The notes: generated by a model from the sequence alone, not told the origin. A stretch of DNA of 64,000 nt from Bryobacterales bacterium (GCA_963840845.1 CAWJBS010000108.1:2458-66457), one strand, 5' to 3'; counted from the stretch's first letter, positions 4,842-53,534 are shown. Made by a program: numbers and translations.

Positions 4842-4930
4842 AAGTAACCCCGGGATTTATGCCGGGGACTTGAAATTACAAATCAGTGTCGGCTTTTCCG
4901 CCAGAGGCGGATGAGCCTTCGGCTCAAGCC
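4842..4930. repeat. Structured interspersed repeat, copy 2
   Basis: Module A (aagtaaccccgggatttatgccgggga..aaattacaaa) is co-linear with bases 1-45. Module B at 4891-4930 (ggcttttccgccagaggcggatgagccttcggctcaagcc) is inverted relative to 80-119. Confidence 0.65.
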
Positions 4931-5381: not shown

Positions 5382-5708
5382 ATGATTGCAAATAAACAAT
5401 TAATATCGATATTAATCCTGTCTGCAGTTCTGTTTATATACGGATGTGCCGGATCAAATAGTACTTTACCGGCAAAATTCGTTGTCGGTAATATCGTCGT
5501 AGTTGGCAATGAACCTTTTACCAAATTAGCATTGCAAACCGGACCGTCAGGTATAATTTTACTCGACTGCGACAAAGAAACTAAAGATTTTCTTCTTAAT
5601 AATCAGGGCAGGAATGTAAAGATTTTTTATGAAATAAGAGACGATACTAAAGCCCCTAATGCTGTGTATGTTAAAAAATATGAATTTATCTCTAAGGAGA
5701 TTCAATAA
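5382..5708 (+). CDS. Small lipoprotein of unknown function
   Basis: Signal peptide ending in the lipobox-like LFIYGC. 108 aa, AT-rich codon usage consistent with neighbours. Confidence 0.55.
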   Translation: MIANKQLISILILSAVLFIYGCAGSNSTLPAKFVVGNIVVVGNEPFTKLALQTGPSGIILLDCDKETKDFLLNNQGRNVKIFYEIRDDTKAPNAVYVKKYEFISKEIQ

Positions 5709-5837
5709 AAAGTAACAATTCTTTTAAAGTATTGTATAATCTATTCAATAAAGAGAATATTTTGACTTGACAGTTGGTAAATACAACTCGACCTTCGAAG
5801 TCATTTTATTAATTAATTTGTAAATATTGAGGTCAGT

Positions 5838-21339: not shown

Positions 21340-22113
21340 TCAGGGGTGGGATTCTCTTACTGTTTTCAGTCGTTGGATGAGCCACAGGGGCAGAAAGCGC
21401 GGTGTTATCAGCAAATATCGCCGCCAAAGGCGCTGCGGTTCGGTGCTTAATCGGAAAAACCACTCTAAGCCTAGCCGTTGCATCCACGCGGGCGCTTGCG
21501 GCGTATAACCCGCATGAAAATCGAAAGCTGCTCCCACGCCAATCATCGTCACACCCGGAAAATTCTGACGGTGCTCAAACATCCAGCGCTCTTGTTTCGG
21601 TGTGCTGATGCCAATAAACAGGATGCGCGCGCCTGATTGCCGTATGTCCGCCTGCACTTGCAGGTCTTCCTCCGCCGTCAGCGCACGGAACGGCGGCGAG
21701 TAACGGCCCGCAATCCGCAGGGCGGGGAACTTCTCTTTCAACCGGTGCTCCAACGGCGGCAACACCTCGGGCCGTCCGCCATATAAGTAGATACCGTGCC
21801 CATGCTGAGCCGCGCTTTCGCATAGATGCAGCATTAAGGTTGGCCCATACACTCGTTGTTGCCCCGCGCTGCCGAAAGACCGGAGCGCCCAAACCACCGG
21901 CATGCCATCGGGCGTGGCGATGTCGGCAGAATTGAGGATTTTCGCGAACGACGGATCGTCTTTCGCCAAAATAATCCCGTGCACTGACGTCACGCAAATA
22001 TAGTGGCCGCCCGCCGCCGGATCTGTCGCCCATTGCCGGCATAGCTCCACCACCTCGGCATAGCTCGTTTTGCTGATGCCCGCGCTGACAACGAATTGTT
22101 TTTCAGGAAGCAC
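21340..22113 (-). CDS. WecB/TagA/CpsF family glycosyltransferase
   Basis: ..ATPDGMPVVW..., IYLYGG, FIGISTPKQERWM, GVGAAFDFHAG and EWFFRL motifs. Confidence 0.85.
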   Translation of the reverse strand: MLPEKQFVVSAGISKTSYAEVVELCRQWATDPAAGGHYICVTSVHGIILAKDDPSFAKILNSADIATPDGMPVVWALRSFGSAGQQRVYGPTLMLHLCESAAQHGHGIYLYGGRPEVLPPLEHRLKEKFPALRIAGRYSPPFRALTAEEDLQVQADIRQSGARILFIGISTPKQERWMFEHRQNFPGVTMIGVGAAFDFHAGYTPQAPAWMQRLGLEWFFRLSTEPQRLWRRYLLITPRFLPLWLIQRLKTVRESHP

Positions 22114-22780
22114 GTAGTCTGGGTAAATCCTAAAGATAGCTCGCTGTTTCGTTCTAAACTAATAATTGTGAAGACCTTAATCGGAATTTTCTTACTTTCG
22201 GCTGTTTCCTCCGCCGTTTTGGTAGGCCAGTCGGCCGAACCCCGCAAGGCGCCGGAACTCGCGTTCACCGTTCCCGGTGAGGGCGAGAAACTGTTGAGCC
22301 AGTATCGCGGCAAAGTGGTCTGTTTGGAATTCATTCTCACCACCTGCCCCCACTGCCAGGCTTCTGCGCACGAACTCACCAAGTATCAACAGGAATTGGG
22401 CAAGCACGGATTCCAAGCTATCGACATCGCCATCAACGCCTTGGACAACATGCACAAGCCCGCGGAAGCCGCACAGATGGTGGAGGATTTTGCCCGCACC
22501 TATCAGGTGGGTTTCCCGGTCGGCTACATTCCGCGCGCCAGATGATGTCGTTCTTGACTGTCACCCCGGCCGAGCGCATGGTGGTGCCGCAAGTCGTTCT
22601 GATCGACCGCAAAGGTTTCATCCACTATCAGACCCTGCCGATAGCGGCCCGCAATGGGACGCCGTGGCCAAAGATCCCAATCTGCGCCAGCACATCGACG
22701 AATTGATGGCCCTCCCCGCCACCACCACCTCCGCTCATCCGAAGAGCAAAATGGTGGCCAGTACCGCGGCGAAGCAATAA
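22096..22780 (+). CDS. TlpA/redoxin-like thiol-disulfide oxidoreductase, 2 frame breaks (about 22540, 22630); true start probably internal (about 22168)
   Basis: Signal anchor and the TCPHC active site. The continuation ..QMMSFLTVTPAERMVVPQVVLIDRKGFIHYQT.. and the tail lie in other frames. Confidence 0.7.
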
Positions 22781-37355: not shown

Positions 37356-38090
37356 CTACTTGGCTTGCTTTTTGCGACGCAGAAGTCCCGCGCCCGTCAA
37401 CAAACCACCTAACATCATGGCGTAGCTCGCCGGCTCCGGAGCCGGATTCAACGAAACGCCATCCAACAATGAAAACGGCGGTGCGCCCGCTGGTGTACCA
37501 TCGGCCAAGAACGACAAAACTTCAGTCGAACTCGTCGCCACGAACGTCATCGAGGCTTGCTGCCAACCGCTGAAACCATCGGCCGGGATGCTCACCGTCG
37601 AGGTCGATTGTGTTGCGTTTCCGAACGTAACCTGCCACTGTTCGGTGGTCGGTTCATCGTCGTTATGCGTCTGCTGCGTCCCAGCCCAGTCGAAGGTCAG
37701 CACATAGGCATCGCCCACAACCAAACCGCTCACGGTCTGCGAAAGTGCTGAAACCTGCGCAGCTCCGTCTTGGCCAATAAAGTTACCGCCGTTGGGGCTC
37801 GCCCCTACTATCGTCGGCAACGCTACGTTCCCGTAGATGCCCGCGGAACCTGTAGTACCGGCCGTGCTGGGCGAAAACAAGAACGTGTAGCTCGTGGTTG
37901 GTCCGCTCGTGGTCCAGCCCGTTACTGTCGTGTTGTAGCCCAATTGGCCGGCGCCATTCGTGGACGATTCAAAACTGCCGTTTGTGATCAAATCTGCCTT
38001 CGCCGCCGGAGCCAAGGCCAAAACGGCTGCAGCAGACAGTGCCACCACAGCACCCTTGCTCACCTGACCGATCTTCTTAAAAACTTCCAT
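37356..38090 (-). CDS. PEP-CTERM sorting-domain protein
   Basis: Signal peptide, DLITNGSFE start of a beta-sandwich region, and C-terminal APEPASYAMMLGGLLTGAGLLRRKK. Confidence 0.8.
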   Translation of the reverse strand: MEVFKKIGQVSKGAVVALSAAAVLALAPAAKADLITNGSFESSTNGAGQLGYNTTVTGWTTSGPTTSYTFLFSPSTAGTTGSAGIYGNVALPTIVGASPNGGNFIGQDGAAQVSALSQTVSGLVVGDAYVLTFDWAGTQQTHNDDEPTTEQWQVTFGNATQSTSTVSIPADGFSGWQQASMTFVATSSTEVLSFLADGTPAGAPPFSLLDGVSLNPAPEPASYAMMLGGLLTGAGLLRRKKQAK

Positions 38091-39659: not shown

Positions 39660-40934
39660 TTGACGAAGCGAAATTATTTATTTATTTTTCCAGCGCTAAT
39701 CCCGCTGCTTTTTTGTTCCTGTGGGAATAAGCGTGCCAACCTGCAACTGGAACCCGATCCGCATGCGATTTCCCGCCGGCTCAACATTCCCGCGGCCCGC
39801 CATCCTCACATCGCCCTAGATCCGTCGGGCGATACAGTTTACGTTCTCGCCGTAGCGGGTTCCGACCCAACGTCCCAATTAGTCCTACTCACCAGCGTAA
39901 ACGGCGGCGACACTTTTGAACCGCCCGTTCCCATTAATGAGCCCGGGACCAACGTCAGCTCGCATGGCGAAAATAGCCCGGTTATCCTCTTCGGGCCTGG
40001 CGAAAAGATATACACCATGTGGGAGCAGCAGGATGGCGAGGCGGCTGCCATCATGTTCGCCAACTCGCTCGATTTCGGCGCCACCTTCGAAAAACCGGTT
40101 CGCGTCTCCGATCAAGCCACCCCCACCTATGCTGGCTATCCGACCTTCGCCGTGGCGCCCAACAAAACTCTCTGCGCTGCCTGGCTTGATTTCCGCGATC
40201 AAACCACCCAGTCCGATACCGCCTCCATCTATCTGTCCTGCTCCATCGATGAGGGTGCCACGTTTTCGAAGAATTTGAAAGTCGCCGACAACGTTTGCCC
40301 TTGCTGCCGGCCCACCATCGTTTACGGTCCGAATGGCCAGCTCATGGTCTTCTGGCGGCGCGTGTTCCCCGGTAACATCCGCGACATGGTTGTCTCCATT
40401 TCAAACGATCAAGGCAACACGTTCGCTCCGCCGGTTCGGGTTGCCGAAGACGGCTGGAAGTTGGATGGCTGTCCCGATTCCGGCCCCGCCGTGGCCCGCG
40501 TCGGCAGACGCATCTATGTCTCATGGCTGACGGAAGCCACTCACGCACGCGCCGGTGTCCGTCTGGCATGGACCGACGATGGCGGCAAGACGTTCTCCTT
40601 ACCGGTCATGGCATCCACTAAAACGCTCGATGCCAACCATCCGGCGTTTGCCCTGCAAGAGGACGGTACGCTGCTGCTCTCGTTCCAAGCCCGCGATCCG
40701 CAACGCCGTGGCGGCTGGACTCCGCCGCGCCCTTACGCGGTTGAGATTGATGCCCACGGCGATCTGTCCGATCCTGTCCTCATTGCCGATGGAACGATGC
40801 CCGTTGAGTTCCCCACTGTCGCCGCCGGTAACGCCGGCCGCGTCTTCTTTGCCTGGACCGAATCCCTCACCGATGCAACCGGTGAAAAGGGGACAGTGAT
40901 GTTAGTGCGCGCCCGTACGCCCGAACGCTACTGA
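39660..40934 (+). CDS. BNR/Asp-box repeat (sialidase-fold) lipoprotein
   Basis: Lipobox LLFCSC. Five Asp-boxes: SVNGGDTF, SLDFGATF, SIDEGATF, SNDQGNTF and TDDGGKTF. Confidence 0.75.
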   Translation: MTKRNYLFIFPALIPLLFCSCGNKRANLQLEPDPHAISRRLNIPAARHPHIALDPSGDTVYVLAVAGSDPTSQLVLLTSVNGGDTFEPPVPINEPGTNVSSHGENSPVILFGPGEKIYTMWEQQDGEAAAIMFANSLDFGATFEKPVRVSDQATPTYAGYPTFAVAPNKTLCAAWLDFRDQTTQSDTASIYLSCSIDEGATFSKNLKVADNVCPCCRPTIVYGPNGQLMVFWRRVFPGNIRDMVVSISNDQGNTFAPPVRVAEDGWKLDGCPDSGPAVARVGRRIYVSWLTEATHARAGVRLAWTDDGGKTFSLPVMASTKTLDANHPAFALQEDGTLLLSFQARDPQRRGGWTPPRPYAVEIDAHGDLSDPVLIADGTMPVEFPTVAAGNAGRVFFAWTESLTDATGEKGTVMLVRARTPERY

Positions 40935-40970: not shown

Positions 40971-41669
40971 GTGGGCTACCCGCGCGTTTTCTTGCCAGTG
41001 ATCTTCTGCGTGCTTGCTGCCGCACAGCAGGGCCATAATGCCGAAGGCACCAGACAGTTGTACTATCTGGGGCCGGAAACGCCCGCCGAAAAGACCGCGA
41101 CCTCCTCGCAGCCGGCGACGCGTCACTTAGGCCTGCGCTATAACATCGTCCTGATCCACGACAAAGGCAGAGACGAGGAGATCGCCTCGAGCCACGTGTT
41201 GCAAGACGGCGATTGCTTCGCTATTGATTTACAGACCAACCACGCCGGCTATCTCTACGTTCTGGCCAAGCAATCCAGCGGCTCGTGGCTGCCCTTGTTT
41301 CCTTCGCCCGACATGGCCGGCCAGAGCAATCAGATTGACCCCTTCACCCGCGTGCGCGTGCCTTCCGGCTATTGCTTCACCGTCCACAAACCCGCCGGTA
41401 AAGAGACGTTATTCGTCGTCTTCTCGCGCGACAAAAAAGACTTCTTCGAACTTTACGAAAACATCAAGACCAAGCACGAAAATCATCAACTGGTGGACAC
41501 CACCATTGAGCATTGGAACCAGCAGTTCGGAGGCACGCGCGATATCTCTGTAACTCGCATCTCCGAACCCGTCAAGAAAGACGAACCCCGCGGCGCGGTG
41601 TATGTCGTCAACACGTCCGACAAACTGTCCTCCAATCTTGTTACCAAGATCGAAATCATGCACCGTTAA
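40971..41669 (+). CDS. DUF4384 domain protein (secreted)
   Basis: Signal peptide. ..GDCFAIDLQTNHAGYLYVLAKQSSGSWLPLFPSPD...VPSGYCFTV..ETLFVVFS matches the DUF4384 pattern. Confidence 0.7.
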   Translation: MGYPRVFLPVIFCVLAAAQQGHNAEGTRQLYYLGPETPAEKTATSSQPATRHLGLRYNIVLIHDKGRDEEIASSHVLQDGDCFAIDLQTNHAGYLYVLAKQSSGSWLPLFPSPDMAGQSNQIDPFTRVRVPSGYCFTVHKPAGKETLFVVFSRDKKDFFELYENIKTKHENHQLVDTTIEHWNQQFGGTRDISVTRISEPVKKDEPRGAVYVVNTSDKLSSNLVTKIEIMHR

Positions 41670-41670
41670 C

Positions 41671-42861
41671 TTACTTGACCACCTGTACGCTATCGGCCGT
41701 CACCACCAGCGCAAACGGGCTCTTGCTAAACGAATCGCCATTGCCCTGAAAGCTGATCTTGGCTCCGGTGCGCACCGCGCTCGTGACCGGTACCGTGAGC
41801 TTAAGCGTTACATCCGCCGCCGTGGAATCCGTCATCGCCAGCGTGATCTCTTTGGGCGCGCGAACGGGTACCGCTTTCACCACGATGCCGCTCAACTGCG
41901 GCAGTGGCTTGCCCTGCAAATCACTGGCAAAATACTTCTCGCCATTGTCGGCTTCTAACTGCCGCCTCATCGCCAGCCACGCCGCTAGTTCCGGATTCGT
42001 CCGGCTCAATTCGGCTTCCGCCCGCCGCGCATTCACAACTGTTGCCGGATCAATCGCAAACTCGGCCGGCGGAAACGGATTGCTGGCCGATAGCTTGCGA
42101 ACCTGATCCAAACCTTCGAGCGACCCATGATAAGAAACGTACACCGTTTCTAACATCCCGTTCACTTGCCGGCGCTGATCTTCCGGCAACGGCGTTACCA
42201 GATCTTTCGTGCTGGCTCGCGCCAGATGCCACACGGCTTGTGGCTGCTTGTTGTTGTCCAACCCGGATACGATCCCGAGCCACGACGATATCTCCGCGTT
42301 TCCCGGTTCCTTCTTTAAACACGCCGCGAAGTCCTCGGCTGCCGCGCTGAAGTTGCCGCGCTGCCATTCCGCCCATCCTTCGGTTCGTTGCGCCAGCACT
42401 TCCACGCTCACTCTTTGCTTCTGCCATTCGGCTTCCGTCACGCTGGCTGGCTTTTTGTCGGCTGCAAAGTAATCCTTGGTCGAGGCCAGCAGTTGGTGAG
42501 CGGCCTTGTCGCCCGCATCCACAATCTCCGTATTCGCGTTGGTCTGTTGCGGCGCCAGCACCGTTACCCAATACAGCCCCACCGAATTACCTGGTTGAGA
42601 AGCCAGCATTTGCCGCGCAATGCTGAACATGCTTTGCTTGTCCCCAATAGATTCGTAAGTGGAGAGATACAACTCCTGCCGTGCCCGCGCCAAACCTGAT
42701 TGGGGATAGCTCTTGCTCCAAGTGTCCAGCAACGCCAAGCGCTTTTCAGGAGAGGCCTCCGAGCGAATGGTCAGGACAAGGTCATACTCTTTGCGATCGG
42801 TCCAATCGGCTGCTACTGCCATCGACACAAAAGCCAGGCAACAAATCAACTTCCGCTTCAT
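41671..42861 (-). CDS. Secreted helical-repeat (TPR-like) protein, last gene of the kinase-caspase operon
   Basis: Signal peptide MKRKLICCLAFVSMAVAA. 396 aa, mostly helical-repeat-like sequence. Its start is 3 nt after the caspase gene stop. Confidence 0.6.
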   Translation of the reverse strand: MKRKLICCLAFVSMAVAADWTDRKEYDLVLTIRSEASPEKRLALLDTWSKSYPQSGLARARQELYLSTYESIGDKQSMFSIARQMLASQPGNSVGLYWVTVLAPQQTNANTEIVDAGDKAAHQLLASTKDYFAADKKPASVTEAEWQKQRVSVEVLAQRTEGWAEWQRGNFSAAAEDFAACLKKEPGNAEISSWLGIVSGLDNNKQPQAVWHLARASTKDLVTPLPEDQRRQVNGMLETVYVSYHGSLEGLDQVRKLSASNPFPPAEFAIDPATVVNARRAEAELSRTNPELAAWLAMRRQLEADNGEKYFASDLQGKPLPQLSGIVVKAVPVRAPKEITLAMTDSTAADVTLKLTVPVTSAVRTGAKISFQGNGDSFSKSPFALVVTADSVQVVK

Positions 42862-42864
42862 TGC

Positions 42865-44562
42865 TTATTTGCCCCTCGTCAATGAAACAGTCTTGGTCTG
42901 GAAGGGCACCACTTCAACTTCTTGCGACGCGCCTACCACCACGCCCTTTTCAACCAGTCGCACCGTGTATTTGCCGGGCGGCAGCTTCACGGGTGTTGGC
43001 AGCGGATCAGCCAGCCACTCGCCGTTTACCAGCACCTTGCCGGAGCCAGTGGAGCCAATGATCAAAAGCGTTCCCGTCGCTGTGTCGCTCGAACTCCCGA
43101 TCTTGTGAATGGAGATATCGCGCGTATCCCCGGTTGGATTCACTTCCACATGCAGAATTTCTTTCTCAATCTTCGCGTCCGTTGCCTCGGCAGCCGCCGG
43201 TTCAGCGGGTGGAGGATAGGCGGCTTGTAACGCCTTGCTCCAGCGCGCTAAAGGCACCGATGACGACTGTGCCACGCGGATACCAGCGCTCCAATCCGGC
43301 ATCCCAAACTGCACGGTTTGGAAGAGTTCTTGCACTGGCGGCGGCGCTGGAAGCTCGGTCTTGATGACCTGTGCCGCTTCCGGGTAGACTGGTCCTAGTT
43401 CCTTCAACATGGCCGTGGCTTTGGCTACTGATTCACTGGTTCCGCGCAAGCGAATCACACCCAGCATATGCACTGCTTCCGCTAACTGGTCGCTCAGTAA
43501 ATAGCTGTTCACGGCTTCGAATGCCGAATCGATCGCGAACGGATCAAGGTTCAGCGTCTTTTCATAGGTCACCGCGGCGTCCTTGTATTGCGCCGCTTCA
43601 TACTTCTGGTCCGCTTCTTTGCGTGCCATCAGATAGGGAAGCTTCGCTTTGGCGGTAGATTCCAGTGCGCCGCCCGGTTTGCGTTGAATCACCTGATTGA
43701 CTAGCCGAATGGCTTGGTCCCAATCCTGACGCTGCTCGCGTTTCTGCGCTTCGAGCATCCAGCGAGACGCCTGCGATGGGTCGTTCGCCGTTTGCAAATT
43801 AGAGGGCGGATGGAAATAGAAGGTATTGGTGAGGCTAGAGATAGTCCAAGGCGACTGACGGCTTTCGGTCTCTTGTGAGACGCGCGCCTTGACCTTAGTG
43901 AAGACATCATCAAGCGTCAGCCCTGGCTGATCGATCAAATCCGCCAAAGCTTCCGTGAAGAAGCTATCGCGTCCGTTGGGATTGTCCGCTGCCACTTGTC
44001 CTGGGCTCGTCGAAAAAGCGACGTAGGTTTCAATGCCCGCCACTTGGGGTTGGGCCAAACCCGATTGCAGCGCGTTCTTCTCCGATACCGGATTGCTGCG
44101 GCACGCGTCTAAAATAATGATGCTTCGCTTGGTACGTTTCTTCAATTCTTCAAATAACTGTCCTAAGCGGAAGCATTTGAATTTGGCCTGAATCACCGTG
44201 CTGGCCGCTTCAAAATCCACCGGGACTAGAAAGTTTTCACTATCAATCTGAACGCCGTGCCCCGCGTAGAAGAACAAAGCGGTATCGTCTGGACCCAGCT
44301 GCTCTGCCAGTTTCGCGGCAGCTTCTTCCATCTCTGGATAAGTGGCGTCTTCTTTCAGAATGGTTTTGAAACCAGCCGCTTGCAACGCCTTATCCATCAG
44401 CCGCGCGTCGTTGATCGCATTCCGCAGAGGGCTGATGGAATAGTTATTGTTGCCGATAATCAAAGCGACTCGCTTGCCTTCTTCCTGCGCCGCCGCCGTG
44501 CCGAGCGCCAGCAAAAACGCTAAACAAAGAAACTGGAACCTAACTAAACTCTTCATGCCCAC
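42865..44562 (-). CDS. Secreted caspase-family (peptidase C14) protein with TPR region and C-terminal PEGA-like domain
   Basis: Signal peptide, RVALIIGNNNY, FFYAGHGVQ (His), IIILDACRSNP (Cys), central TPR-like helices, and C-terminal ..VLVNGEWLADPLPTPVKLPPGKYTVRLVEKG.. Confidence 0.85.
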   Translation of the reverse strand: MGMKSLVRFQFLCLAFLLALGTAAAQEEGKRVALIIGNNNYSISPLRNAINDARLMDKALQAAGFKTILKEDATYPEMEEAAAKLAEQLGPDDTALFFYAGHGVQIDSENFLVPVDFEAASTVIQAKFKCFRLGQLFEELKKRTKRSIIILDACRSNPVSEKNALQSGLAQPQVAGIETYVAFSTSPGQVAADNPNGRDSFFTEALADLIDQPGLTLDDVFTKVKARVSQETESRQSPWTISSLTNTFYFHPPSNLQTANDPSQASRWMLEAQKREQRQDWDQAIRLVNQVIQRKPGGALESTAKAKLPYLMARKEADQKYEAAQYKDAAVTYEKTLNLDPFAIDSAFEAVNSYLLSDQLAEAVHMLGVIRLRGTSESVAKATAMLKELGPVYPEAAQVIKTELPAPPPVQELFQTVQFGMPDWSAGIRVAQSSSVPLARWSKALQAAYPPPAEPAAAEATDAKIEKEILHVEVNPTGDTRDISIHKIGSSSDTATGTLLIIGSTGSGKVLVNGEWLADPLPTPVKLPPGKYTVRLVEKGVVVGASQEVEVVPFQTKTVSLTRGK

Positions 44563-44566
44563 TCTC

Positions 44567-46474
44567 CTAGCGGAACGTCACTTGTCTCGAACGGTCATCG
44601 AGTGAAGCGTCCGTACTGCATTGGGCCGACGCGAGCCGGCCGCCGTTGTAGTTGTACTTCACGTGTGAAGACTTGCCTTGGCTGGAAATTTCTTCAGCCA
44701 CTAGCCGCCCGTCTTCATATTGCATCGTCCGCTCATAAATTCGGGAGCGATTTTTCGGATCCACACCCTGATAGCCGCGAATGGCAGACAGATGCTGTCC
44801 GTCCCATTCGAAGTCCAAAGAAAAACCAGTCAGCGAACCATTCTGATCAACTAACTCCACGGCGCGCGCTACCCGGCCGGCCGCGTCGTAACTAAAGCGG
44901 AAGTAGTGGACATGGTCCCAAACAAAGGGTTCGAAGTAGCGATTACCCGCGATGCCCATGCTCACGTTCTTTCCTGTGAGTTTCTCAACGCTATCGGGAT
45001 CGATGTATGGGTTATTTAGCACTACAACAGCAGCATGCTTCAGTAAGTCGTCTGGGTCGGCCGTGTTCACGCTCGGATGCGCGTCTCCTTCCACGGCAGA
45101 AATCACTTGCGGAAACTTATCGTTGTAGGCGAAGGTGATTTTCGGTTCGCCCGTGTTTTTCTCTGCCTTCTCAAACGTCGGCGTGATGGAGACTAAGCGG
45201 TCGCCATTCCATTCGTAATCGACTTTCATCTTGCCCGAGGCGTCGATGTGTTCGATCTTGGGTTGAAACGCCAGGCTGATGGGGCAATAGAAAACATCGC
45301 TGGGAAGCTTCTTGCCGGAGAGCCAGTTTGCCGTGCCGTTTTCAGCGGAGGCCGAAGTGGGCGCCGGTGTATAGGATGCCAGCATGGCGCGTACTTTCGC
45401 CCGTTGATCTAGATTGGCGTCGAGCGTGTTGGTAATGGTCAGATAGCGCGTGAGCAAAACGCGGCTTTGTTGCGCATCGCGGCTGATGGCGGAAGCCGTG
45501 GCTGCCTGGTACAGCAGATCGGGATCGCTGTCGCTGGCGCTTAACCCTTTCAATGCCAATTCGTGAAGCTTCACGTAATTGCCTTCGCGCAAGGCCTTCT
45601 GGATTTGATCTTTGACATCTTCGAGCGAGTTGGTTTGCCGGAACAGCAGTTCGTTGCGCAGATTGCTGGCCTTCTCGCGCTCTTCGTCGACTGCGTGCAA
45701 GTCATAGCGGTCGAGTGTGGCGAATGCCTCGGCAAATTCGCTGCGTGCCCCCAGAATCTCGGCTTTCTTGAGAAGCATCGGCAACGAATCCGGATCAATG
45801 CGTTCGGCCTCGGTAATGCTCTTCAGCGCCAGATCGAGTTTGTTCTCAATCTTATAGTTAGTGGCAAACTGCACGGCTTGATTGAGAATTTCGCGTTCGC
45901 CCACGCCGAGTTGCTTGCGTTCGCGTTGATTGTCCAGCGCCACTTCGCGCGAATAGCTGGCCCAGGAGGCGATGGCCCGTTGCTGCAAGATCTTGTCTGA
46001 CGGCTGGCGCATGCTGGCCAATCGAAACTGCCGGAACGCCGCACCATACTCCCGTTCAGTGAACAGTTGCTCCCCAGTATCCTTGTGCTGCTCTAAGCTA
46101 GTTTGCAGCGCTTTCTTGCGCAAGGCGGCGAGGTCTGGGAACGAACGTTCGTATTGCTCAAAATCGCCATCGCTGATGATAAACGGGTCCCAGGCATTGG
46201 CGGCGGCGAACGCGCGCAACACCGCTACCTTACGGTCGAGCCACCTTTTGCGCTGGGCCAACTGGTCGCGCAGTTTTGCCTGTTCGGGAACCTCCGGATA
46301 AAGCGATTGCGACAGCTCGGCATAACGCAATCCTTGATCCAAGACTTCGAAATTCGCTGTGCCGTTTTCAAATTGCTCATAGCGGACGCGCATGGCGCTT
46401 TCCACATATTTTTGTAGTGTGCGAGCGGCTGGATCTTGCGGATAGGTTTTGGCGATCGCTGAGATCAAGCTCAA
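44567..46474 (-). CDS. Large helical-repeat protein with YD/RHS-like repeats in the C-terminal half
   Basis: 635 aa. Repeats: DYEWNGDRLVSI, FSYDAAGRVARA, DFEWDGQHLSAI, MQYEDGRLVAEE and YNYNGGRLASAQ. The TTG start overlaps the upstream stop by 4 nt. Confidence 0.6.
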   Translation of the reverse strand: MSLISAIAKTYPQDPAARTLQKYVESAMRVRYEQFENGTANFEVLDQGLRYAELSQSLYPEVPEQAKLRDQLAQRKRWLDRKVAVLRAFAAANAWDPFIISDGDFEQYERSFPDLAALRKKALQTSLEQHKDTGEQLFTEREYGAAFRQFRLASMRQPSDKILQQRAIASWASYSREVALDNQRERKQLGVGEREILNQAVQFATNYKIENKLDLALKSITEAERIDPDSLPMLLKKAEILGARSEFAEAFATLDRYDLHAVDEEREKASNLRNELLFRQTNSLEDVKDQIQKALREGNYVKLHELALKGLSASDSDPDLLYQAATASAISRDAQQSRVLLTRYLTITNTLDANLDQRAKVRAMLASYTPAPTSASAENGTANWLSGKKLPSDVFYCPISLAFQPKIEHIDASGKMKVDYEWNGDRLVSITPTFEKAEKNTGEPKITFAYNDKFPQVISAVEGDAHPSVNTADPDDLLKHAAVVVLNNPYIDPDSVEKLTGKNVSMGIAGNRYFEPFVWDHVHYFRFSYDAAGRVARAVELVDQNGSLTGFSLDFEWDGQHLSAIRGYQGVDPKNRSRIYERTMQYEDGRLVAEEISSQGKSSHVKYNYNGGRLASAQCSTDASLDDRSRQVTFR

Positions 46475-46979
46475 ATTGCAGTGGCGAACGTTTTATCCGA
46501 GCTATCGATCATGCGCACCAACGGCTCACTGCGCGCTAGTTCTGCCAGTTCTTCGACGCCGCCGGGCGCAAAGGCCACAAACGACGCAGCCGGAATTTCT
46601 GTTTGAGTCTTGTCGGAGCCTTTAGCCGAATGCGCGCGTTGCCCCACATGGCCCAAGCAAGTTCGGTACCTTTCGGGTTGCCTTCCGGCAGAACGTAATG
46701 AATGGAGCCTTCCGAACTCAGCGCGAAGAATCCCGTGGCCTGATCGCGGTAAAGCGTTTCGCCCAGCTTGATAGAGGCGAGCTTTGCAGTTGGATCTTCA
46801 ATCTTCGAATTGGCGCCCAGATTTAAGACTTTATCCTTGCCATTCACGTTGAGCGAAACGGCATCGCCAAATTGAAATCCCTTGTCGGTGTGGGTGACAA
46901 CGATACCGGCGCAGAGCGCTTCAGTGGCGCATAAAACTGCTGTAACTATAAGGGAAAGAAAACGAGTGGGCGTGGACAC
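46471..46979 (-). CDS. Small secreted protein, frame broken near 46640
   Basis: Signal peptide MSTPTRFLSLIVTAVLCATEALCAG. The tail continues in ORF 46471..46656. Confidence 0.5.
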
Positions 46980-47040
46980 AGTTTGAACTCAACTCAGTTT
47001 AGAGTTTACCTTTGTGCGGTAAACGTAGCAAGTTTAGGTC

Positions 47041-48727
47041 CTAATGTGTCTCTGGTGACTTGGCGCAGCGGAAACCGATGCGCTGGCTGGCGAGCCGGGC
47101 AGGGAAGGTGGCCGTTTCGCTCAGTAAGGAAGCTGGCAGGTAGTAGTAACCGCCGCGGATTCGGTAGAAGGGCTCATCCAGGGTGAGCGTTTTATCCAAA
47201 CTCTTCTGCATTTTCAGCAAGTTATCGGGCGTGGGCTTCTCGTTGCCGTCTACCCACTCCCAAACGTTGCCGCACATGTTGAGCGCGCCATATGGGCTGG
47301 CGCCTTGCGGAAAGGCATTCACGTTCATCATTTCGTGCTTTGCCAGGGTTGGATTATCCAAAACGTTAGCGCGTTGGGGTTCCGGTTGATCACCCCAAGG
47401 GTACTTTCGACCGTTTGCACCGCGTGCCGCTTTCTCCCACTCGTCGTCGGTGGGTAGCCGTTTACCCGCCCAGTTGGCGAACTCTTTGGCGTCATATAGG
47501 GTCACGTTCACCACTGGAAAGTCGGGCTTGTCGTCGGGGAAGTCTTTGGATTGCGCAATCCCTTCGCCTTCAGGAACTCGGCGTAAGCTCGATTCGAAAC
47601 CTCGGTCTTATCAATGTAGAAGGGTTTGATGTTTACTTTGTGGTTATCGGAACCAATCAGCGCGGGTCCGCCATCTACTAGAGCCATATCGCCGCTGGGT
47701 AAAGTGAGCGTCTTTGCCAAAGTCGGGGTGGCTGGCGCGTGGTCTTTGGCAAGGTGCCAGATGAGCGCTCCCACAGACAGAAGCACTAGAAGCAGCGCTC
47801 CCGCCAGCACACGGCGGAACATATTCGGCTGAGCCAAGCGATCTAGGACGGGAATGGCTTGTGTGCGCCAGAGCCAGGTCTTTTCGGAGACCTCGTTTTC
47901 GGAGATGGCTTGCAGCCCTTTAAGGATGGGGGCGAAGTCGGCGTAACGATTCTCCGGCTTCTTTTCCAGGCAACGCTTGACCATCAATTGCAAAGATTCG
48001 GGCGCGCCACAGACAGCCATGACTTTCAAATCGGGAGTACCGTTCAAAATGGCGGCCCAAAGCGTTTCGAGCGTAGATCCGACAAACGGCCGGCGTCCGC
48101 CGCAGATCATCTCATAAAGAAGTACGCCAAAGGCCCAGACGTCGGTACGAAAGGTAACTTGCTCACCGCGAACTTGCTCGGGCGCCATGTAGAACGCTGT
48201 GCCTTTGGTCCAACCGGCTTGGGTCTTATTCCAATCGACTGCTTTGGCAATGCCGAAATCAACGAGCTTGATACGTCCGTTCGGATCGAGATTGAGATTC
48301 TGCGGCTTTAGATCGCGGTGAATGATGCCTTGCGAGTGAACGTATTCCATGGCGTAGGCAATCTGTTGCGCGATGCGCACGATCTGCTTTATGTTGCCTA
48401 ACTCACCGGCGCGGATGGTCTTATCCAAGCTCTGGCCGCGCAGAAACTCCATGACGATGAAAGGCGAGCCTTCGAAGTCGCCTTTGTCGTACGTGCTGAC
48501 GATGTTTTCGTGAGAACAGCGGCTGGCTAGCTGGACTTCATCCAGAAACGAATCGCGCACTTCGCCATCGGTTTCTTTGCCGGGCTTGAGGATTTTGATG
48601 GCTACGTCGCGCGGAAGCTCGGTATCGCGGGCGCGATAGACGTCGCCATCTCACCGCCGAGATGCTCTTCACAGCGATAACGGCCTGCGAGGAACGGGAC
48701 TTGGCGCATCTGGCGCAGGGCTTCCAT
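47041..48727 (-). CDS. Ser/Thr protein kinase - TM helix - FGE/SUMF1 (formylglycine-generating-enzyme-like, C-type-lectin fold) domain; frame broken near 48645 and near 47515
   Basis: [11 protein letters not shown](G)EMGDVY glycine loop, [14 protein letters not shown] and MAPE motifs. TM helix [17 protein letters not shown]. Then ..[14 protein letters not shown].., [37 protein letters not shown] and IGFRC. Confidence 0.85.
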
Positions 48728-48836: not shown

Positions 48837-51800
48837 GTGTCCGTATCAAGGAGATTCGCCGTAATGCAATTTGCCGCCTTTGTTTCGATAGCCATCCTAT
48901 GCTCTGCGCCTTCCCTTGAGGCGCAGGTTTCGGCTCATCTGGGGACCGTGACAGATCCATCAGCGGCGATTGTCTCGAGCGCGAATCTGACGGCCAAGAA
49001 CGTTGACACAGGGCTCGAGCGGGAGACGGTGACGGATGGACAGGGCCGCTACCAATTTTCGGCACTACCGGTGGGGCGGTATGAGATTCACGCTACGAAG
49101 AACGGATTTGCGGAAGCCATTCGCAGCGGCATCCAACTGGTGGTTGGGCAAGATGCCACGGTGGACATCACGCTCAAAGTGGGTGAAGCGAGCCAGCAAA
49201 TTACCGTGAACGGCGACGCGCCACTGGTGAACGCCAGCACTGCCGACATTTCGGGTTTGGTTGGGGAGACCCAAGTCAAGAATCTGCCACTGAACGGCCG
49301 CAGTTACGACGAACTGCTTACCCTCAACCCCGGCGTGGTGAACTTCACCATGGAAAAGACGGGTGGCATCGGAGTTTCGAACTCAACGGTGGGCAATAAC
49401 TTTGCCGTGATGGGAAACCGTCCACAGCAAAATTTGTTTTTACTGAACGGAATCGAATTTACTGGGGCGGCGGAGAACAACATGCAGCCCGGCGGCACGA
49501 GCCAGCAACTGTTGGGCGTGGATGCGGTGCGCGAATTCAATCTGCTGGCCGATTCGTACGGAGCCGAATATGGCAAACGGCCGGGCGCGCAGGTGGTGAT
49601 TCTGACGCAATCGGGCACGAACGAGTTACATGGCTCGATTTATGAATTTCTGAGAAACAACGCATTCGATGCGCGCAATTTTTTCGATGGCGCTTCAACG
49701 CCCGGCTTCGAACGCAATCAGTTTGGCGGCGCTTTGGGTGGAGCGGTAAAGCAGAATAAAACCTTTCTCTTTGGCAACTTCGAAGAATTTCGCCAGCATC
49801 TACACCAAACTGGGGTAGACTTAGTTCCCGATAACAACGCGCGTAACGGATACTTGCCTTGCAAATTAGTCACGCCGGCTCCGACGTGCCCGAGCAATGG
49901 ACTGGTGTTTGTCGGCATTTCTCCGCTGATCAATGCGTGGCCTGTTGCTTCAGCGGGCGCGCCCGATTTCGGTGGTATCTCGGAAGCTTTTAACAGCCCA
50001 TTACAAACGATTCGCGACGATTTCGGAAATGCGCGGCTGGATCATATTTTTTCCAGCAAAGACACTTTCAATGCGGTTTACACCATTGATTACAGCAATG
50101 ATTTCACACCGACGAGCACAAACGCCTATAGCGCTGACGCGGAAAATCTGCGGGAACAAGTGGCCAGCATGGAAGAGACGCATATCTTCTCGCCGACGTT
50201 ACTGAATACGGCGCGAATTGGCTTTTCGCGGGCGGTCTACTTCTTTACGGGTGAACCTACGCCCGGCACGCCCGCTGCGAGTTTGCCCGGTTTTCTTTCC
50301 GGCTTGCCATTGGGAGCGATTGTGGTGGGTGGGAGTGCCGCTTCGAATCCAACGGCGCAGCTGAGTTTGGCGGGCAGTAATAACGGCAGTAATCTCGATG
50401 TGGCGCGAAATCTGTTTACTTACGAAGATCGGGTTTCATTCACCAAAGGCCGGCATCAGGTTAGCGTGGGGGCTTCGTTTCAGCAACTGCGGTCGAACGA
50501 AAATTTAGCGTTGAGCCAAGATGGCCAAGCGACGTTCGCGAGTTTGCAAACCTTCTTACAAGGCGGAGGCACGGCGAGTTCGTTGCTGTATGATCCGACG
50601 CCTACGCCGCTTAGCTGGCGCTCGTGGTTTGGAGCGGGATATGCGGAAGATGTCATTCGCATGGCGCAGAACTTCACGCTTTCGCTGGGTTTCCGCGACG
50701 AATTCAGCACGGGGTGGAATGAGGCGCATGGACGCGCAGCGACTTATACTTATCCGGGCGGCGTTATCTCGAGCCTGCCTACTATTGGAAGTTCTGCTTT
50801 CACGGTGAACAATGCCAAGTTTCTGCCTCAACCGCGAGCTGGCTTGGCTTGGAGTAACGGGGGGCACAGCCAATTTCCGACGGTGATCCGCGCGGGCTTT
50901 GGGATGTACAACGATTTGCAAGACGCGTTGGGTTACCGGACGGATCAAAACGCGCCGTTTAATCCGACGTGGAGTTTGCCAAACGGCGAAAGTCACATCG
51001 CTGCCGATTTTGACAAATCTGCCGGGTGCCGGCGACGGCCAAATTAGTGCCGGGCGGCGTGCAGCCGGATATGCAAACGCCGACGCTGATTTCGTGGTCG
51101 TTCCGGGTTCAGCAAGCGATTACGCCGAATACGTCTTTGAGGTGGGTTATGTGGGGTCGCACGGTTATCACGAATTGATAGGGATTGACGCCAACGAACC
51201 GTTTCCGGTGATTTGTCCAGCGAAGCCATGTCCGGCGGTTTATCCGAACACGTTTCCGGCGGGAATTGCGGGAACGCCCGTCACTCCTGGCACCTACTAT
51301 GTGCCAACGGCTACCAAACCGAATGCCACGCTGAACAATACGTGGACTTATTTTCAGAAGGTGACAGTTCTTACAATGCGCTGCAAGTGGACTTGAACCA
51401 TCGTTTCAGCCACGGGCTTGTGCTGCGGGGCGTCTATACATGGTCGCGCGCGATTGACGATGGTGATTCGTTGAATGCGACAACTTCGGGCGGAGAGCCG
51501 GCGCTCACATCAGATCCTTATGATTTGGGCGCCGATCCGGGGATTGGCGAACTTCGATGTGAGACATGTGGGGGTGATCAATGCCAGTTATCTGTTGCCA
51601 TTCCTGAAGCAGCAGAAGTTACTGGCGGATGGACGATCAATTCGATTGTGACGCTGCAAGCGGGTTTTCCGTTCACGCCGCAACTGAGTTACAACCCTTC
51701 GAATAACGGCGATACGCGCAATCCGGTGCGGCCTTTTGTGAACCCAGCGTTTACAGGAAAGGTAATTGAAGGTTCGGTGAACCAATGGTTTAATCCGGCG

Positions 51801-52092
51801 GCGTTTCTGGCTCCGGCGGCGAGCAGCGGCTTTTATGGGAATCTAGGCCGCGATACGCTGATCGGGCCGGGACTGGGCACTTGGGACGTTTCGCTGCTGA
51901 AGAACACGCCGATCGGCGAGCGAGCCCACGTGCAGTTTCGGGCGGAGGTATTCAACGTGTTGAACCGCGCCAATTTCAACACGCCCAATGCCGTGGTGTT
52001 TACGCCATCGGCGTATCGCCACGGCAGGGCTAATCACGAGTACTTCGACAACATCTCGGCAGATTCAGCTCGGGTTGAAGTTGCTTTGGTAG
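48837..52092 (+). CDS. TonB-dependent receptor with N-terminal carboxypeptidase-regulatory-like domain, at least 3 frame breaks (about 51040, 51350, 52020)
   Basis: Signal peptide, ..GTVTDPSAAIVSSANLTAKNVDTGLERETVTDGQGRYQFSALPVGRY.., and plug region NGRSYDELLTLNPGV. The beta-barrel tail ..FRAEVFNVLNRANFN.. ends in an alternative frame with ..RQIQLGLKLLW. Confidence 0.85.
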
Positions 52093-53534
52093 TTAGTGCG
52101 ACTTGCCCGCGTCTTTGAAGTTGATGGCGAAGTAAGGATAGTTGTAATTGGGACCTTTGGTGAGCTTCTGCAGGAACTCGCCGCCTTCAGATGCGCATCC
52201 AACGCCCACGTTGACGTGGCGGTTTAGTTCGTACCAAGTATAGGGGTCGAATTCTTTGCCGACGTGCGTTCCCGAGTTGCCCGTTGTGTCGCGGACAATG
52301 CTACCGCCGGAAGTGTTGTAGAGAGCGTCTTTTGCTCCGGCAAGCCAGAAGTCCAGAAACTGGCTGGTGATCGTCCAGCGGCGGACGGGTTCGAGTTCAA
52401 CCGACTCGCTCGGCAATAATGTTCTGCCAGCCGAACAAGTCTGAGCCGCCAAAGCGGTCGTGGGCCGTGGGGTACATGGTGTCGAAGGTGTTGTGCACTG
52501 CCGTCTGTCGGGTTGCTATCGCCGGAAGCGTAATCGTACTGCCAGAAAACGCGCGGCTTCCACCAAGACCTGATCGATGCGATACGCAAGACCGCCGGTT
52601 GCCGCCCAGGCCTTGATGCCGTTGTTGCCATCGTTACCGCGCTCGATGATGCTCTCCGCCGAGTAGTCGAGGCTCTTCACGAAGACACCTTTGAAGCGGA
52701 GTCCATAAGCGGTCTCACTCTGCTTGCCGGTTTTGAGTTTAGCGGTGGTCTCGATAGCGACGCTTGGTTGAAGGCGCCAGAGTACGAAGGGCTCGAGCAC
52801 AGAGTGAGGCAGTATGCGGTCGATGCCGCCATAGGCACCGTAGATATTGTTGCCTTCCTGATGATGACTGATGCCATCGGCGAGCGGCACCACGGCTGAG
52901 CCGCCAAAGAGACCCAAGCGGTAGCGATCATGATGCAAATTGGCGACAACGGCATCGTAGGAGCGGCCCTGATTGCGCCATTCGGAGTTGGCGATGATCG
53001 TGTTGTTGTAGTTGATCAACTGGCGACCGACGCGCAGGCTGATCCAACTGGTTTCGGGATCGCCGAATTCAGCGTACGCCAGCTTCAGATCCCAGGCGTT
53101 GAGATTGGGCGGACCCCATGGTGGTTTCTGCATGAAGGGGCGGGCGTCTTGCAATTGGCCGACTACTTTGAACCAAGAGGTTGGTTTGATGTTCATCTGA
53201 AGGCGCGAGCGAAGCAGGAGGTAGGAATCGTTGTTGTTCAGTTGAAGCCGCTGTCGTGATAGCCCTCATAGCGGAGGCGTTCTTCCCAACCGAACCAAAG
53301 CCACTTTGGCAGTTTCTGGTTGAGATCGTAAGCAGGGGCGAGGTCGGGCAGATCGTAAGCTGAGGCCTGGCCGAAGGTCCGATAGGCAGGGCCGTTGAGG
53401 AAGCTGAGCGGGTTGGAGGCGGGGCCGGTGATGAAACCGCCGCCGAAGGCGCTGGCAGCATTCTGGGTGGTGATGTCGTCCTGTGCGAGGAGGGCGGATG
53501 CGCCCAGAAACAGGATTGACAGTAGTCTCCGCAT
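52093..53534 (-). CDS. Outer-membrane beta-barrel channel (alginate-export/porin-like), at least 3 frame breaks
   Basis: Signal peptide MRRLLSILFLGASALLAQ. Alternating beta-strand pattern (..WFGWEERLRYEGY.., ..WDLKLAYAEFGD.., ..YGLRFKG..) and aromatic C-terminus ..YPYFAINFK. The pieces lie in four ORFs. Confidence 0.6.

Follow-up and report, generated by a model that had tools for sequence, protein, structure and literature searches.

The locus studied here brings a receptor-like kinase and a presumably exported caspase homolog together in one compact block of a Bryobacterales genome, which raises the question of whether its genes form a genuine functional unit and what such a unit would do. 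It lies in a 64,000-nucleotide stretch of DNA (the window), of which positions 40,971 to 48,727 were analyzed. An earlier note, made from the sequence alone, had described five co-directional genes facing a DUF4384 gene and had proposed an envelope-located sensing and proteolytic response module. We found that the true number of co-directional genes is four, the count of five being an artifact of frameshifts. The cluster in the window consists of four minus-strand genes, in the order kinase-TM-FGE, 804-aa protein, caspase-TPR-PEGA-like protein and 396-aa TPR protein, together with one convergent DUF4384 gene. The cluster is real and is so far known from a single order of soil Acidobacteria only.

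Gene content and interrupted reading frames

The first minus-strand gene (47041..48727) encodes a Hanks-type Ser/Thr kinase with a single TM helix and a periplasmic FGE-sulfatase domain of the C-type-lectin fold, as assigned by Pfam on the frame-corrected sequence (Pkinase, 9e-51; FGE-sulfatase, 2e-39). In the window sequence the kinase is not the single ORF that had been described; the earlier reader had tacitly corrected two frameshifts. Compared with the intact 559-aa ortholog of locus L001, two single-base frameshifts, near 48645 and 47545, break the gene into three ORFs (48727-48602, 48560-47508 and 47514-47041). The catalytic residues of both the kinase and the caspase, whose loss the earlier note had named as evidence against its reading, are intact after frame correction. 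The second gene (44567..46979, minus strand) encodes one 804-aa protein, predicted to be Sec-exported; full-length homologs and tblastn identify it as a single gene. What had been read as a small secreted protein and a 635-aa YD protein are fragments of this product split by frameshifts, and the supposed 4-nt overlap between them is a frameshift within the gene and not a gene boundary. The fused 804-aa query recovered more than 100 homologs of about 800 aa at 97 to 100% coverage, and tblastn placed the frame changes near 46625 and 46474. The absence of a signal peptide from the 635-aa ORF does not hold for the protein, which has its signal peptide at the true N-terminus (46979).

The remaining genes are uninterrupted. 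A predicted exported C14 caspase homolog of 565 aa (42865..44562, minus strand) and a predicted exported TPR-containing protein of 396 aa, TPR396 (41671..42861, minus strand), which is the third core gene by family homologs and gene order, are both intact in the window, and a convergent, accessory gene (40971..41669, plus strand) encodes a DUF4384 protein of 232 aa that is also predicted to be exported. The Peptidase_C14 (3.5e-43) and DUF4384 (2.5e-12) domains, like those of the kinase, were found by Pfam on the strands claimed for them. The other junctions had been measured correctly at 61 nt (47041 to 46979), 4 nt (44567 to 44562) and 3 nt (42865 to 42861), as had the single base (41670) that separates the convergent stops.

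Four frame-disrupting indels thus fall in two adjacent genes of the window, and we considered that the locus could be decaying in this organism, with the kinase and 804-aa genes true pseudogenes and the cluster nonfunctional here. The concentration of the indels in neighboring genes would be consistent with such decay, as would their position, which is not obviously at long homopolymers. However, the fragments are about 61 to 97% identical to the intact L001 proteins (87 to 97% outside a short overlap segment), with no further disruptions seen in them beyond the indels, and intact orthologs exist at 90 to 97% amino-acid identity. Unrelated neighboring genes at 48.8-53.5 kb are likewise frameshifted: the TonB-like and Alginate_exp-like neighbors contribute four or more additional frameshifts to the same 7 kb, with none in the genes on either side, and a prolyl-oligopeptidase gene at 223-2335 is split as well. 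Comparable splits occur on other long contigs (P0534 and P0535 on one contig; the L075 caspase as 328 and 256 aa). Assembly errors are the most likely source of the window frameshifts, and we regard decay as quite improbable.

A conserved triad with optional neighbors

Comparison with 69 Bryobacterales/Solibacteraceae MAGs reduced the cluster to an invariant core, a triad in which the 800-aa protein is followed by the caspase and then by the 400-aa TPR protein. In 55 of 56 loci the gene immediately downstream of the 800-aa gene is that of the caspase, and in 45 of 48 the caspase gene is in turn followed by TPR396 in the same orientation. The earlier note had proposed gene-order conservation as a check on its reading; the triad order and its tiny spacers recur in nearly every related locus, but the exact block does not, given that the arrangement in which the kinase lies upstream and DUF4384 converges is limited to a near clade (L001-3, L007, L008, L019, L075). 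Judged from this nearly universal order, co-transcription and a shared function of the triad appear well supported. The two spacers measure 4 and 3 nt in the window and 10 and 3 nt in L001, and distances of 3 to 10 nt support coupling inside the triad. The kinase may or may not be co-transcribed with the triad, given the 61-nt gap and its shifting position in relatives; promoter and terminator scans of the locus were uninformative, the promoter scan yielding nothing.

When flanking ORFs were clustered without bias, only the caspase, TPR396, kinase and DUF4384 families stood out as clearly recurrent partners; no further real cluster occurred in more than 11 loci. DUF4384 and kinase-FGE genes are frequent but optional members of the cluster. 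The DUF4384 gene is present in 22 of the 38 fully flanked loci, convergent and adjacent in 19 and elsewhere in the neighborhood in 3. Kinase-FGE genes occur in 17 of the 38, at no fewer than four different positions: apart from the arrangement in the window, they follow the TPR gene or DUF4384, lie upstream in divergent orientation or some 9 kb away, or are missing altogether, as at L006, even though that locus is 84% identical. This variability makes the kinase a recurrent accessory and not a gene required at the head of a single operon. The kinase-FGE genes at differing positions look orthologous, being about 40 to 44% identical to that of the window and all keeping the VAxK, HRD and DFG motifs and the TM helix. 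Eleven of the 38 loci, L006 included, have neither a kinase nor a DUF4384 gene within 10 kb, so that the link to the sensor would be either dispensable or supplied by genes located elsewhere.

Architecture of the putatively exported proteins

Signal peptides were judged by eye from the N-terminal sequences. A signal-peptide-like segment begins each of the core proteins as well as the DUF4384 protein, and N-terminal hydrophobic segments of this kind are kept across alignments A1, A3 and A5. In the 804-aa protein the signal peptide is followed by an N-terminal beta domain, a TPR-like alpha-solenoid of about 390 aa and, at the C-terminus, some 250 aa of YD/Rhs-like beta-sheet, boundaries that are supported by an AF2 model (pLDDT 89.3). 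No model in Pfam, NCBIfam or PADLOC matches the protein at threshold, and its family is small, with just 353 matches among 1.84 billion representatives. The YD/RHS-like repeats that had been attributed to it were not borne out by sequence at threshold (RHS_repeat, E=0.003, 18.4 bits vs 22) but were recovered at the level of fold, given that Foldseek matched the model to TPR superhelices (1.6e-5) and, partially, to Rhs shells (8cp6, 8qja and 8qjc, about 1e-4).

These matches led us to consider an Rhs/YD polymorphic-toxin locus, in which the YD protein would encapsulate and deliver a toxin and its neighbors would be processing or immunity factors. The shells of Tse5 (8cp6) and of T6SS Rhs cores (8qja, 8qjc) share YD-type beta-hairpin repeats, with motifs such as YDxxGRV and FEWDG, with the C-terminal 250 or so residues of the 804-aa protein. 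Its beta region is much too short for a closed Rhs cocoon and amounts to a shell fragment fused to a long TPR solenoid; toxin cargo, an Rhs core and a cleavage motif were not seen in it. Instead of a variable toxin, the protein ends in LDDRSRQVTFR directly after the repeats, a motif that does not vary among the 20 sequences of alignment A1, and its C-terminus is among its best conserved regions, the opposite of what a polymorphic toxin would show. No toxin domain was found, and VgrG, PAAR and T6SS genes were not called in five Pfam-annotated relative loci. We rejected membership in this class because neither an RHS_repeat match above threshold with a closed shell nor a variable toxin C-terminus is present, and the architecture contradicts it; we regard a toxin function as highly improbable.

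The caspase combines a signal peptide, a caspase domain (Peptidase_C14, 148.4 bits vs a cut-off of 21.4), a TPR region and a C-terminal PEGA-like beta-sandwich. The His/Cys dyad reported previously (YAGHG, DACRSNP) is intact, and H102 and C154, as well as D52 and D152, are invariant in 64 orthologs of the main family, to which the window protein belongs, down to 49% identity, which indicates selection on catalysis. An AF2 model (pLDDT 81.8) matched MALT1 (6e-15) and caspase-7 (1e-11) in Foldseek. We take D52 and D152 to correspond to MALT1 D365 and D462 of the acidic, Arg-selecting S1 pocket. The resemblance of the invariant D52 and D-x-C154 to the S1 pockets of MALT1 and metacaspases leads us to infer cleavage after Arg/Lys. 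Relative to MALT1 and caspase-7, with which it shares the caspase-hemoglobinase fold and the catalytic His and Cys at an identity of about 22%, the bacterial protein has no death or Ig domains, carries C-terminal TPR and PEGA-like domains and, given its signal-peptide-like N-terminus, is probably exported. The PEGA-like assignment stood in part: in the window caspase the match is below threshold (E=0.051, 13.9 bits vs 20.8), although it is near full length and the model places a beta-sandwich at residues 497-561, and longer orthologs of 645 to 680 aa carry precomputed Pfam PEGA (PF08308), apparently as an extra inserted domain.

Members of the wider family gave us reason to weigh a second possibility, a nonproteolytic complex, either a periplasmic scaffold or one for envelope assembly, whose caspase fold would act chiefly as a binding module, its activity being secondary or vestigial. 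A paralogous subfamily has a Tyr/Ser pseudo-caspase (FAGYAV, DASRMY in L049), and in a divergent subfamily (L067) the 800-aa homolog is paired with a TPR-PEGA protein that lacks a caspase domain, so that the central activity across the wider family may be something other than proteolysis. Every component is also made up largely of interaction modules of the TPR and beta-sandwich types. The invariance of the dyad and of both pocket Asp residues in the main family argues against a scaffold, and we consider it unlikely for the window locus.

TPR396 gave only weak TPR_14/TPR_16 matches, under the Pfam cut-offs, and its family comprises 191 homologs of 395 to 428 aa, all from metagenomic Bryobacterales/Solibacter. 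The DUF4384 match (PF14326) reached 47.1 bits against a cut-off of 27, and two Cys residues are invariant among its orthologs, a pair that fits an oxidizing compartment.

Known systems and a proposed function

The kinase retains the VAxK Lys, HRD, DFG and TM helix in 19 cluster-linked orthologs, and its sequence matches in the PDB are FGE (chains at 3e-21), EgtB and PorK/GldK. The catalytic cysteine pair of human FGE, C336/C341, lies in the C-terminal segment. The FGE/SUMF1 pair is absent from this segment of the ectodomain in the window and in the 19 orthologs, where the sole conserved Cys of the 32 residues is the structural GFRC cysteine. By these residues, the ectodomain is predicted to be a nonenzymatic lectin-fold (FGS) domain, a sensor and not an enzyme.

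A lectin-fold sensor beside a caspase could point to an anti-phage or programmed-cell-death conflict system, in which the ectodomain would sense an invader at the envelope, the kinase would signal and the periplasmic caspase would inflict self-damage. Conflict systems of multicellular bacteria that pair FGS domains with caspases are the analog for this interpretation, and FGS/FGE-fold domains and caspases recur in predicted conflict systems as sensors and effectors. It would also be consistent with diversified paralogous loci within one genome (bog_375, L020 and L049; SRVP_31, L011 and L065) and with a ParE toxin gene near one locus. However, among the genes called within 10 kb in five Pfam-annotated relative loci (L001, L004, L075, L076, L077), no MoxR, STAND or other NTPase, vWA or EAD component was present, and the flanks of these loci hold ordinary metabolic and transport genes and are not defense islands. 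PADLOC-DB v2 returned only generic kinase-domain matches (PD-T4-6, mad6) and a generic caspase match, with nothing for the 804-aa, TPR396 and DUF4384 proteins. Neither plasmid nor phage copies of the 804-aa protein were found, all matches came from MAGs labeled Acidobacteriota, mostly Bryobacterales, with a graded divergence that looks vertical, and an informal look noticed no hypervariable FGE region or DGR. In the NTPase-dependent systems (MoxR-vWA/VMAP, iSTAND ternary), FGE/FGS is the presumed ligand sensor and caspase the presumed effector, and PEGA is found in some iSTAND versions, which act at the membrane or cell wall (Kaur, Burroughs, Iyer & Aravind 2020, PMC7159879). The Bryobacterales cluster shares the lectin-fold domain and the caspase with them, whereas its core proteins appear exported and not cytoplasmic, and it is restricted to one lineage. 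We view a conflict function as unlikely.

The co-occurrence of caspase, FGE, DUF4384, PEGA and TPR domains that the earlier note mentioned is documented: bacterial C14 caspase homologs with TPR, FGE-sulfatase or DUF4384 partners have been cataloged, none of this type with a tested function (Asplund-Samuelsson et al. 2012, PMC3501461; Klemencic et al. 2019, PMC6426788). The window caspase resembles these orthocaspases and metacaspases in its Peptidase_C14 dyad fused to TPR, its hydrophobic N-terminus, which we read as a signal peptide, its association with FGE-sulfatase, DUF4384 and kinases, and the Tyr/Ser pseudo-variants among its paralogs. The surveys, however, describe single-protein architectures such as caspase-FGE fusions. 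In the Bryobacterales cluster, by contrast, the FGE domain belongs to a receptor kinase and DUF4384 to a secreted protein, each encoded apart from the caspase, which is itself locked into a conserved unit of three genes whose two other families lack a Pfam model. Surveys have already recorded the domain partnerships, whereas the triad appears not to have been described. Similarly, the 'Proteo1' kinases of the bSTK atlas, whose architectures include C-terminal FGE-sulfatase and DUF4384 (bioRxiv 10.1101/2025.01.12.632604), resemble our kinase by architecture (kinase, TM helix, FGE-sulfatase), whereas its specific and repeated link to a caspase triad is not mentioned in the atlas passage on that family.

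We consider that the locus has about an even chance of being, as a whole, a Bryobacterales-specific extracytoplasmic caspase module, Sec-exported and envelope-associated, with optional sensor modules and with window frameshifts that are assembly errors. The sensing and proteolytic response proposed by the earlier note fits this predicted topology. The triad products would be co-translated, exported by Sec and assembled via their TPR solenoids into a periplasmic complex, which the PEGA-like and YD-like beta domains would anchor at the cell envelope and in which the caspase would cut after Arg/Lys. Fusions of the same domains occur in other bacteria (caspase-FGE in 33 sequences, kinase-FGE, kinase-DUF4384 and protease-DUF4384). 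A precedent for the DUF4384 protein as a substrate or adaptor may be the type III-E CRISPR Craspase, in which the TPR-CHAT protease Csx29 cleaves Csx30 and the C-terminal domain of the partner protein is DUF4384 in some lineages (bioRxiv 10.1101/2022.08.17.504292). The likeness, a TPR-bearing caspase-like protease with a partner protein, is one of analogy only, given that the Bryobacterales cluster has no Cas7-11, crRNA or sigma-factor module and that its protease is C14 and not CHAT, in a setting predicted to be periplasmic and not cytoplasmic. The lectin-kinase, and possibly the DUF4384 protein, would be optional sensor, adaptor or substrate modules of the triad, through which an envelope ligand may be coupled to cytoplasmic phosphorylation and to the protease.

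Gene layout and frameshifts

As the sequence stands, the minus strand of the locus (40971-48727) holds ORFs for a kinase N-terminus (48727-48602, 41 aa), a kinase core with a TM helix (48560-47508, 350 aa) and the C-terminal part of an FGE-sulfatase domain (47514-47041, 157 aa), followed by a 147-aa ORF that opens with a signal peptide (46979-46536), a 635-aa ORF with a TTG start (46474-44567), a caspase gene (44562-42865, 565 aa) and the gene for the 396-aa TPR protein TPR396 (42861-41671). A 232-aa DUF4384 protein is encoded convergently on the plus strand (40971-41669). Pfam and the ORF map of this interval agree with the earlier note on the domains and strands, and the map also gives its junctions of 61, 4 and 3 nt and the single base between the convergent stops. 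The gene integrity that the note assumed was wrong, given that the kinase and 804-aa genes are both frameshifted in the window. Its single kinase-FGE gene is three ORFs that form one gene only after a frame correction it did not state, and its separate small secreted protein with a 4-nt overlap likewise depends on an unstated correction and is part of the 804-aa gene. The locus consists of four co-directional genes, not five, plus the convergent DUF4384 gene.

Window 36.4-57 kb shares synteny with a metagenomic contig, L001, on which the genes for kinase-FGE (559 aa), the 804-aa protein, caspase (563 aa), a 399-aa protein and DUF4384 (233 aa) are intact. When the L001 proteins were aligned to the window by tblastn, frame changes appeared near 48645 and 47545 in the kinase gene and near 46625 and 46474 in the 804-aa gene. 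In the 48837-53516 region, a TonB-dependent-receptor-like gene (1076 aa intact in L001) has at least three frameshifts and an Alginate_exp-like gene has one. In the same comparison the caspase, TPR396 and DUF4384 genes and the rest of the syntenic genes kept their frames, and all frameshifts detected in the syntenic region fall in 46.4-53.3 kb, a stretch of approximately 7 kb, with low coverage and strain mixture among the conceivable causes. The frame-corrected fusion of the 147-aa and 635-aa ORFs is 95% identical to the L001 804-aa protein, and the fused query has over 100 database matches, each about 800 aa long, at 97-100% coverage; the two ORFs are therefore one gene. The 635-aa YD protein was said to lack a signal peptide, which holds for the ORF as annotated but not for the true 804-aa gene, given that the signal peptide belongs to the N-terminal part of the fused gene.

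We read the window frameshifts as probable assembly errors, since four unrelated adjacent genes are affected within 7 kb, since identity of the fragments to the intact L001 proteins is otherwise 87-97% (about 61% in one short overlapping segment), and since other long contigs are split likewise. P0534 and P0535, which lie on one 1.65-Mb contig, show the same type of gene split, and the caspase of the related locus L075 is broken into pieces of 328 and 256 aa. We dropped the idea that all four cluster frameshifts lie at homopolymers, given that DNA alignment to L001 (about 85% identical) gave no clean support. The practical lesson is that frameshifted long contigs can make one gene mimic a small secreted protein plus a signal-less large protein. 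Elsewhere in the window, GC changes abruptly near 6.8 kb, from 0.32-0.38 in 1-6800 to 0.54-0.61 in the remainder, and one of the AT-rich genes, prolyl-oligopeptidase-like, is itself broken into two frames (223-1983, 1955-2335). The segment reflects a chimeric assembly join or else recently acquired foreign DNA. A scan of the locus, of a kind uninformative for Acidobacteria, gave no sigma-70-like promoter sites, and terminator-like sites did not exceed shuffled expectation.

A conserved three-gene unit

Scanning one genome per species with two peptide patterns, which could miss divergent copies, returned 69 loci and no cultured isolate carrying the cluster. All were in MAGs labelled Acidobacteriota, mostly Bryobacterales/Solibacteraceae, with one labelled Limnocylindrales, and the cluster members there are labelled 'hypothetical protein'. 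Gene order was determined by searching six-frame ORFs of the loci with the window's proteins. The caspase gene directly follows the 800-aa gene in 55 of the 56 loci with enough flank, the remaining case being an artefact of the distance filter, and is itself followed by TPR396 on the same strand in 45/48. Full 10-kb flanks are available for 38 loci, of which 22 have DUF4384 (convergent-adjacent as in the window in 19) and 17 have kinase-FGE, while 11, including the 84% identical L006, have neither within 10 kb. The placing of kinase-FGE takes at least four forms in this set. Three loci have it upstream and co-directional, the window arrangement; in 5 it immediately follows TPR396 and in 6 it comes after DUF4384; in the last 3 it is upstream on the opposite strand or farther off. 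Unbiased clustering of flank ORFs produced no other clearly recurrent partner family. The exact window-type block also occurs in L001-3, L007, L008, L019 and L075, with differing flanking genes.

Given the near-constant order of the triad and the optional kinase and DUF4384 genes, the conserved unit is the apparently exported triad, a tightly spaced set of three genes whose caspase dyad is intact and conserved, and DUF4384 and the lectin-kinase are accessory. The linkage of both accessory genes is recurrent and variable in position, and their persistence through rearrangements is a sign of functional association. The reading of the locus as an envelope kinase-caspase operon is partly supported; the kinase has no fixed place and the gene count was wrong.

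The flanks of the Pfam-annotated relative loci consist of ordinary transport and metabolic genes. A BNR gene (39660-40934) was rejected as a module component since L001 and L002 alone have it next to the cluster. L077 encodes an RHS/TEN_YD-shell protein of 1781 aa and a TPR-CHAT protein of 1084 aa (1-982, 21859-22403) no more than 10 kb from its triad, and these neighbours may be coincidental. A 244-aa secreted protein encoded at window 37356-38090 (minus strand) ends in a PEP-CTERM-like sorting signal, PAPEPASYAMMLGGLLTGAGLLRRKKQAK, which implies an exosortase system in this organism.

Protein features and diverged paralogues

Neither the 804-aa family nor TPR396 had a match at threshold in Pfam, NCBIfam or PADLOC. 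Against 1.84 billion representative proteins, the former gave 353 matches (160 at E<=1e-30, many fragments) and the latter 191; the 804-aa protein had no match in plasmid or phage collections, and its family gave only marginal TPR matches to PDB sequences. The 147-aa N-terminal part has no Pfam match. We predicted the structure on P0001, which is 95% identical, with an 82-sequence alignment. The model (pLDDT 89.3) has a signal peptide (residues 1-23), a beta domain (25-140), an all-alpha solenoid (142-535) and a beta-rich domain (550-804). Foldseek against the PDB matched it to the TPR superhelices of OGT (1.6e-5), IFIT5 and Tom71, and its C-terminal part to the T6SS Rhs shells 8cp6, 8qja and 8qjc (about 1e-4). 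The YD/RHS-like repeats that had been proposed are thus recovered at the level of fold, whereas RHS_repeat (E=0.003) is below the Pfam cut-off. An Rhs toxin-carrying cocoon was rejected on architecture, given that the YD/Rhs-like region spans only about 250 aa and ends in the conserved LDDRSRQVTFR. These last 11 residues (window 44567-44610) are conserved throughout a 20-sequence family alignment and nearly so in one of 82. They include three Arg, and it is pure speculation that they could be an Arg-specific caspase recognition or cleavage site, or a sorting signal.

The caspase matches Peptidase_C14 (Pfam, 3.5e-43), and His102, Cys154, Asp52 and Asp152 are invariant in 64 orthologues, in agreement with the intact His/Cys dyad noted earlier. 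Its model (pLDDT 81.8) runs from the caspase domain through TPR helices to a C-terminal beta-sandwich, with MALT1 (6e-15) and caspase-7 (1e-11) as best fold matches. The PEGA-like domain assigned to its C-terminus falls below cut-off in the window protein (E=0.051), but orthologues of 645-680 aa carry Pfam PEGA and TPR domains. TPR domains in TPR396 are below Pfam cut-offs. Homology between cluster components was rejected, given that profile-profile comparison of the 804-aa protein with DUF4384, and of TPR396 with the caspase and with the 804-aa protein, gave probabilities of 0.1-4.6%, reflecting generic TPR likeness only. All four non-kinase proteins have N-terminal signal-like segments, as read by eye. 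In the DUF4384 protein (Pfam, 2.5e-12), C82 and C135 are invariant across the aligned orthologues, which fits a disulfide in an exported protein. The kinase-FGE protein matches Pkinase (9e-51) and FGE-sulfatase (2e-39) in Pfam, and its VAxK, HRD and DFG motifs and one TM helix are kept in 19 cluster-linked orthologues; the kinase is apparently active. In the same 19, the ectodomain lacks the catalytic cysteine pair of true FGEs, the structural GFRC cysteine being the sole one that the segment conserves; the ectodomain is therefore a lectin-fold binding domain and not an enzyme.

A single MAG can carry a second, diverged locus; bog_375 has one of the L049 type in addition to the canonical L020. 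The caspase gene is short and without the PEGA-like end in L049, L045, L051 and L057, and a TPR396-like gene lies on the opposite strand in L049 and L051. The one caspase of this subfamily that was read, from L049 (12358-13584), has 408 aa and Tyr/Ser in place of the dyad (FAGYAV, DASRMY), which is the pseudo-orthocaspase signature of Klemencic et al. (PMC6426788). In L066-L071, L073 and L074, the partner gene of the 800-aa homologue has no caspase-domain match. L067 (9959-15286), the one locus of this group that was read, encodes a 954-aa homologue with a Gly-rich insertion, then a 218-aa ORF and a 617-aa TPR-PEGA protein (PEGA 1e-12). Given these partners, the association between the 800-aa family and a TPR/PEGA protein may predate catalysis or be separable from it.

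Known systems and possible role

Published surveys support the co-occurrence of caspase, FGE-sulfatase, DUF4384, PEGA and TPR domains that the note put forward. Caspase-FGE-sulfatase fusions (33 sequences) and TPR partners have been surveyed (PMC3501461), the bSTK atlas describes one kinase family that can carry FGE-sulfatase or DUF4384 domains at the C-terminus (bioRxiv 10.1101/2025.01.12.632604), and DUF4384 is reported in the literature as fused to proteases and co-occurring with kinases. FGS domains with caspases, and separately PEGA domains, occur in predicted NTPase-dependent conflict systems (PMC7159879). The locus is not a member of those systems, given that the genes called in five Pfam-annotated relative loci include no NTPase, vWA or EAD component and that, in contrast to those systems, all core proteins here appear exported. 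No curated NCBIfam family or PADLOC defence system matched the cluster as such, and the literature searched, limited in coverage, contained no description of the triad. The cluster is a variant within the known, functionally uncharacterised bacterial caspase-homologue modules, and its domain partnerships are known.

We propose that the triad products would be exported by Sec and assembled through TPRs into a periplasmic complex, which the PEGA-like and YD-like domains could tether to the envelope. The pocket formed by Asp52 and Asp152 suggests that the caspase may cleave after basic residues. The lectin-kinase and the DUF4384 protein could serve as optional sensor, adaptor or substrate modules, and the Csx30-DUF4384 case is a loose precedent for the latter as adaptor or substrate. 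We lean towards a role nearer envelope homeostasis or protein maturation than defence or cell death, given that the distribution is lineage-restricted and vertical-looking and the genomic contexts are ordinary. We consider it unlikely that the locus performs NTPase-independent extracytoplasmic caspase signalling, in which the lectin-kinase and DUF4384 would link recognition of an envelope ligand, whether a glycan, a part of a phage or a signal of damage, to controlled periplasmic cleavage by the caspase-TPR complex, with the secreted DUF4384 protein as adaptor or substrate. If true, the locus would parallel at the envelope the caspase-based proteolysis that serves immunity or regulation in the cytoplasm, of which Craspase/Csx30 and MALT1 are examples.

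Bacterial caspase homologues are abundant; to our knowledge, a role is known for very few, and research has concentrated almost wholly on NTPase-linked systems of death or defence in the cytoplasm. The cluster offers a defined, conserved test case of an apparently exported caspase with fixed partners, and its optional lectin-kinase link and natural variants, both the Tyr/Ser paralogues without catalysis and the partners without a caspase domain, are useful in this regard. If the complex and the substrates were identified, the task of a periplasmic caspase in a major soil bacterial group would become clear, and DUF4384 and two unannotated protein families would gain a function.
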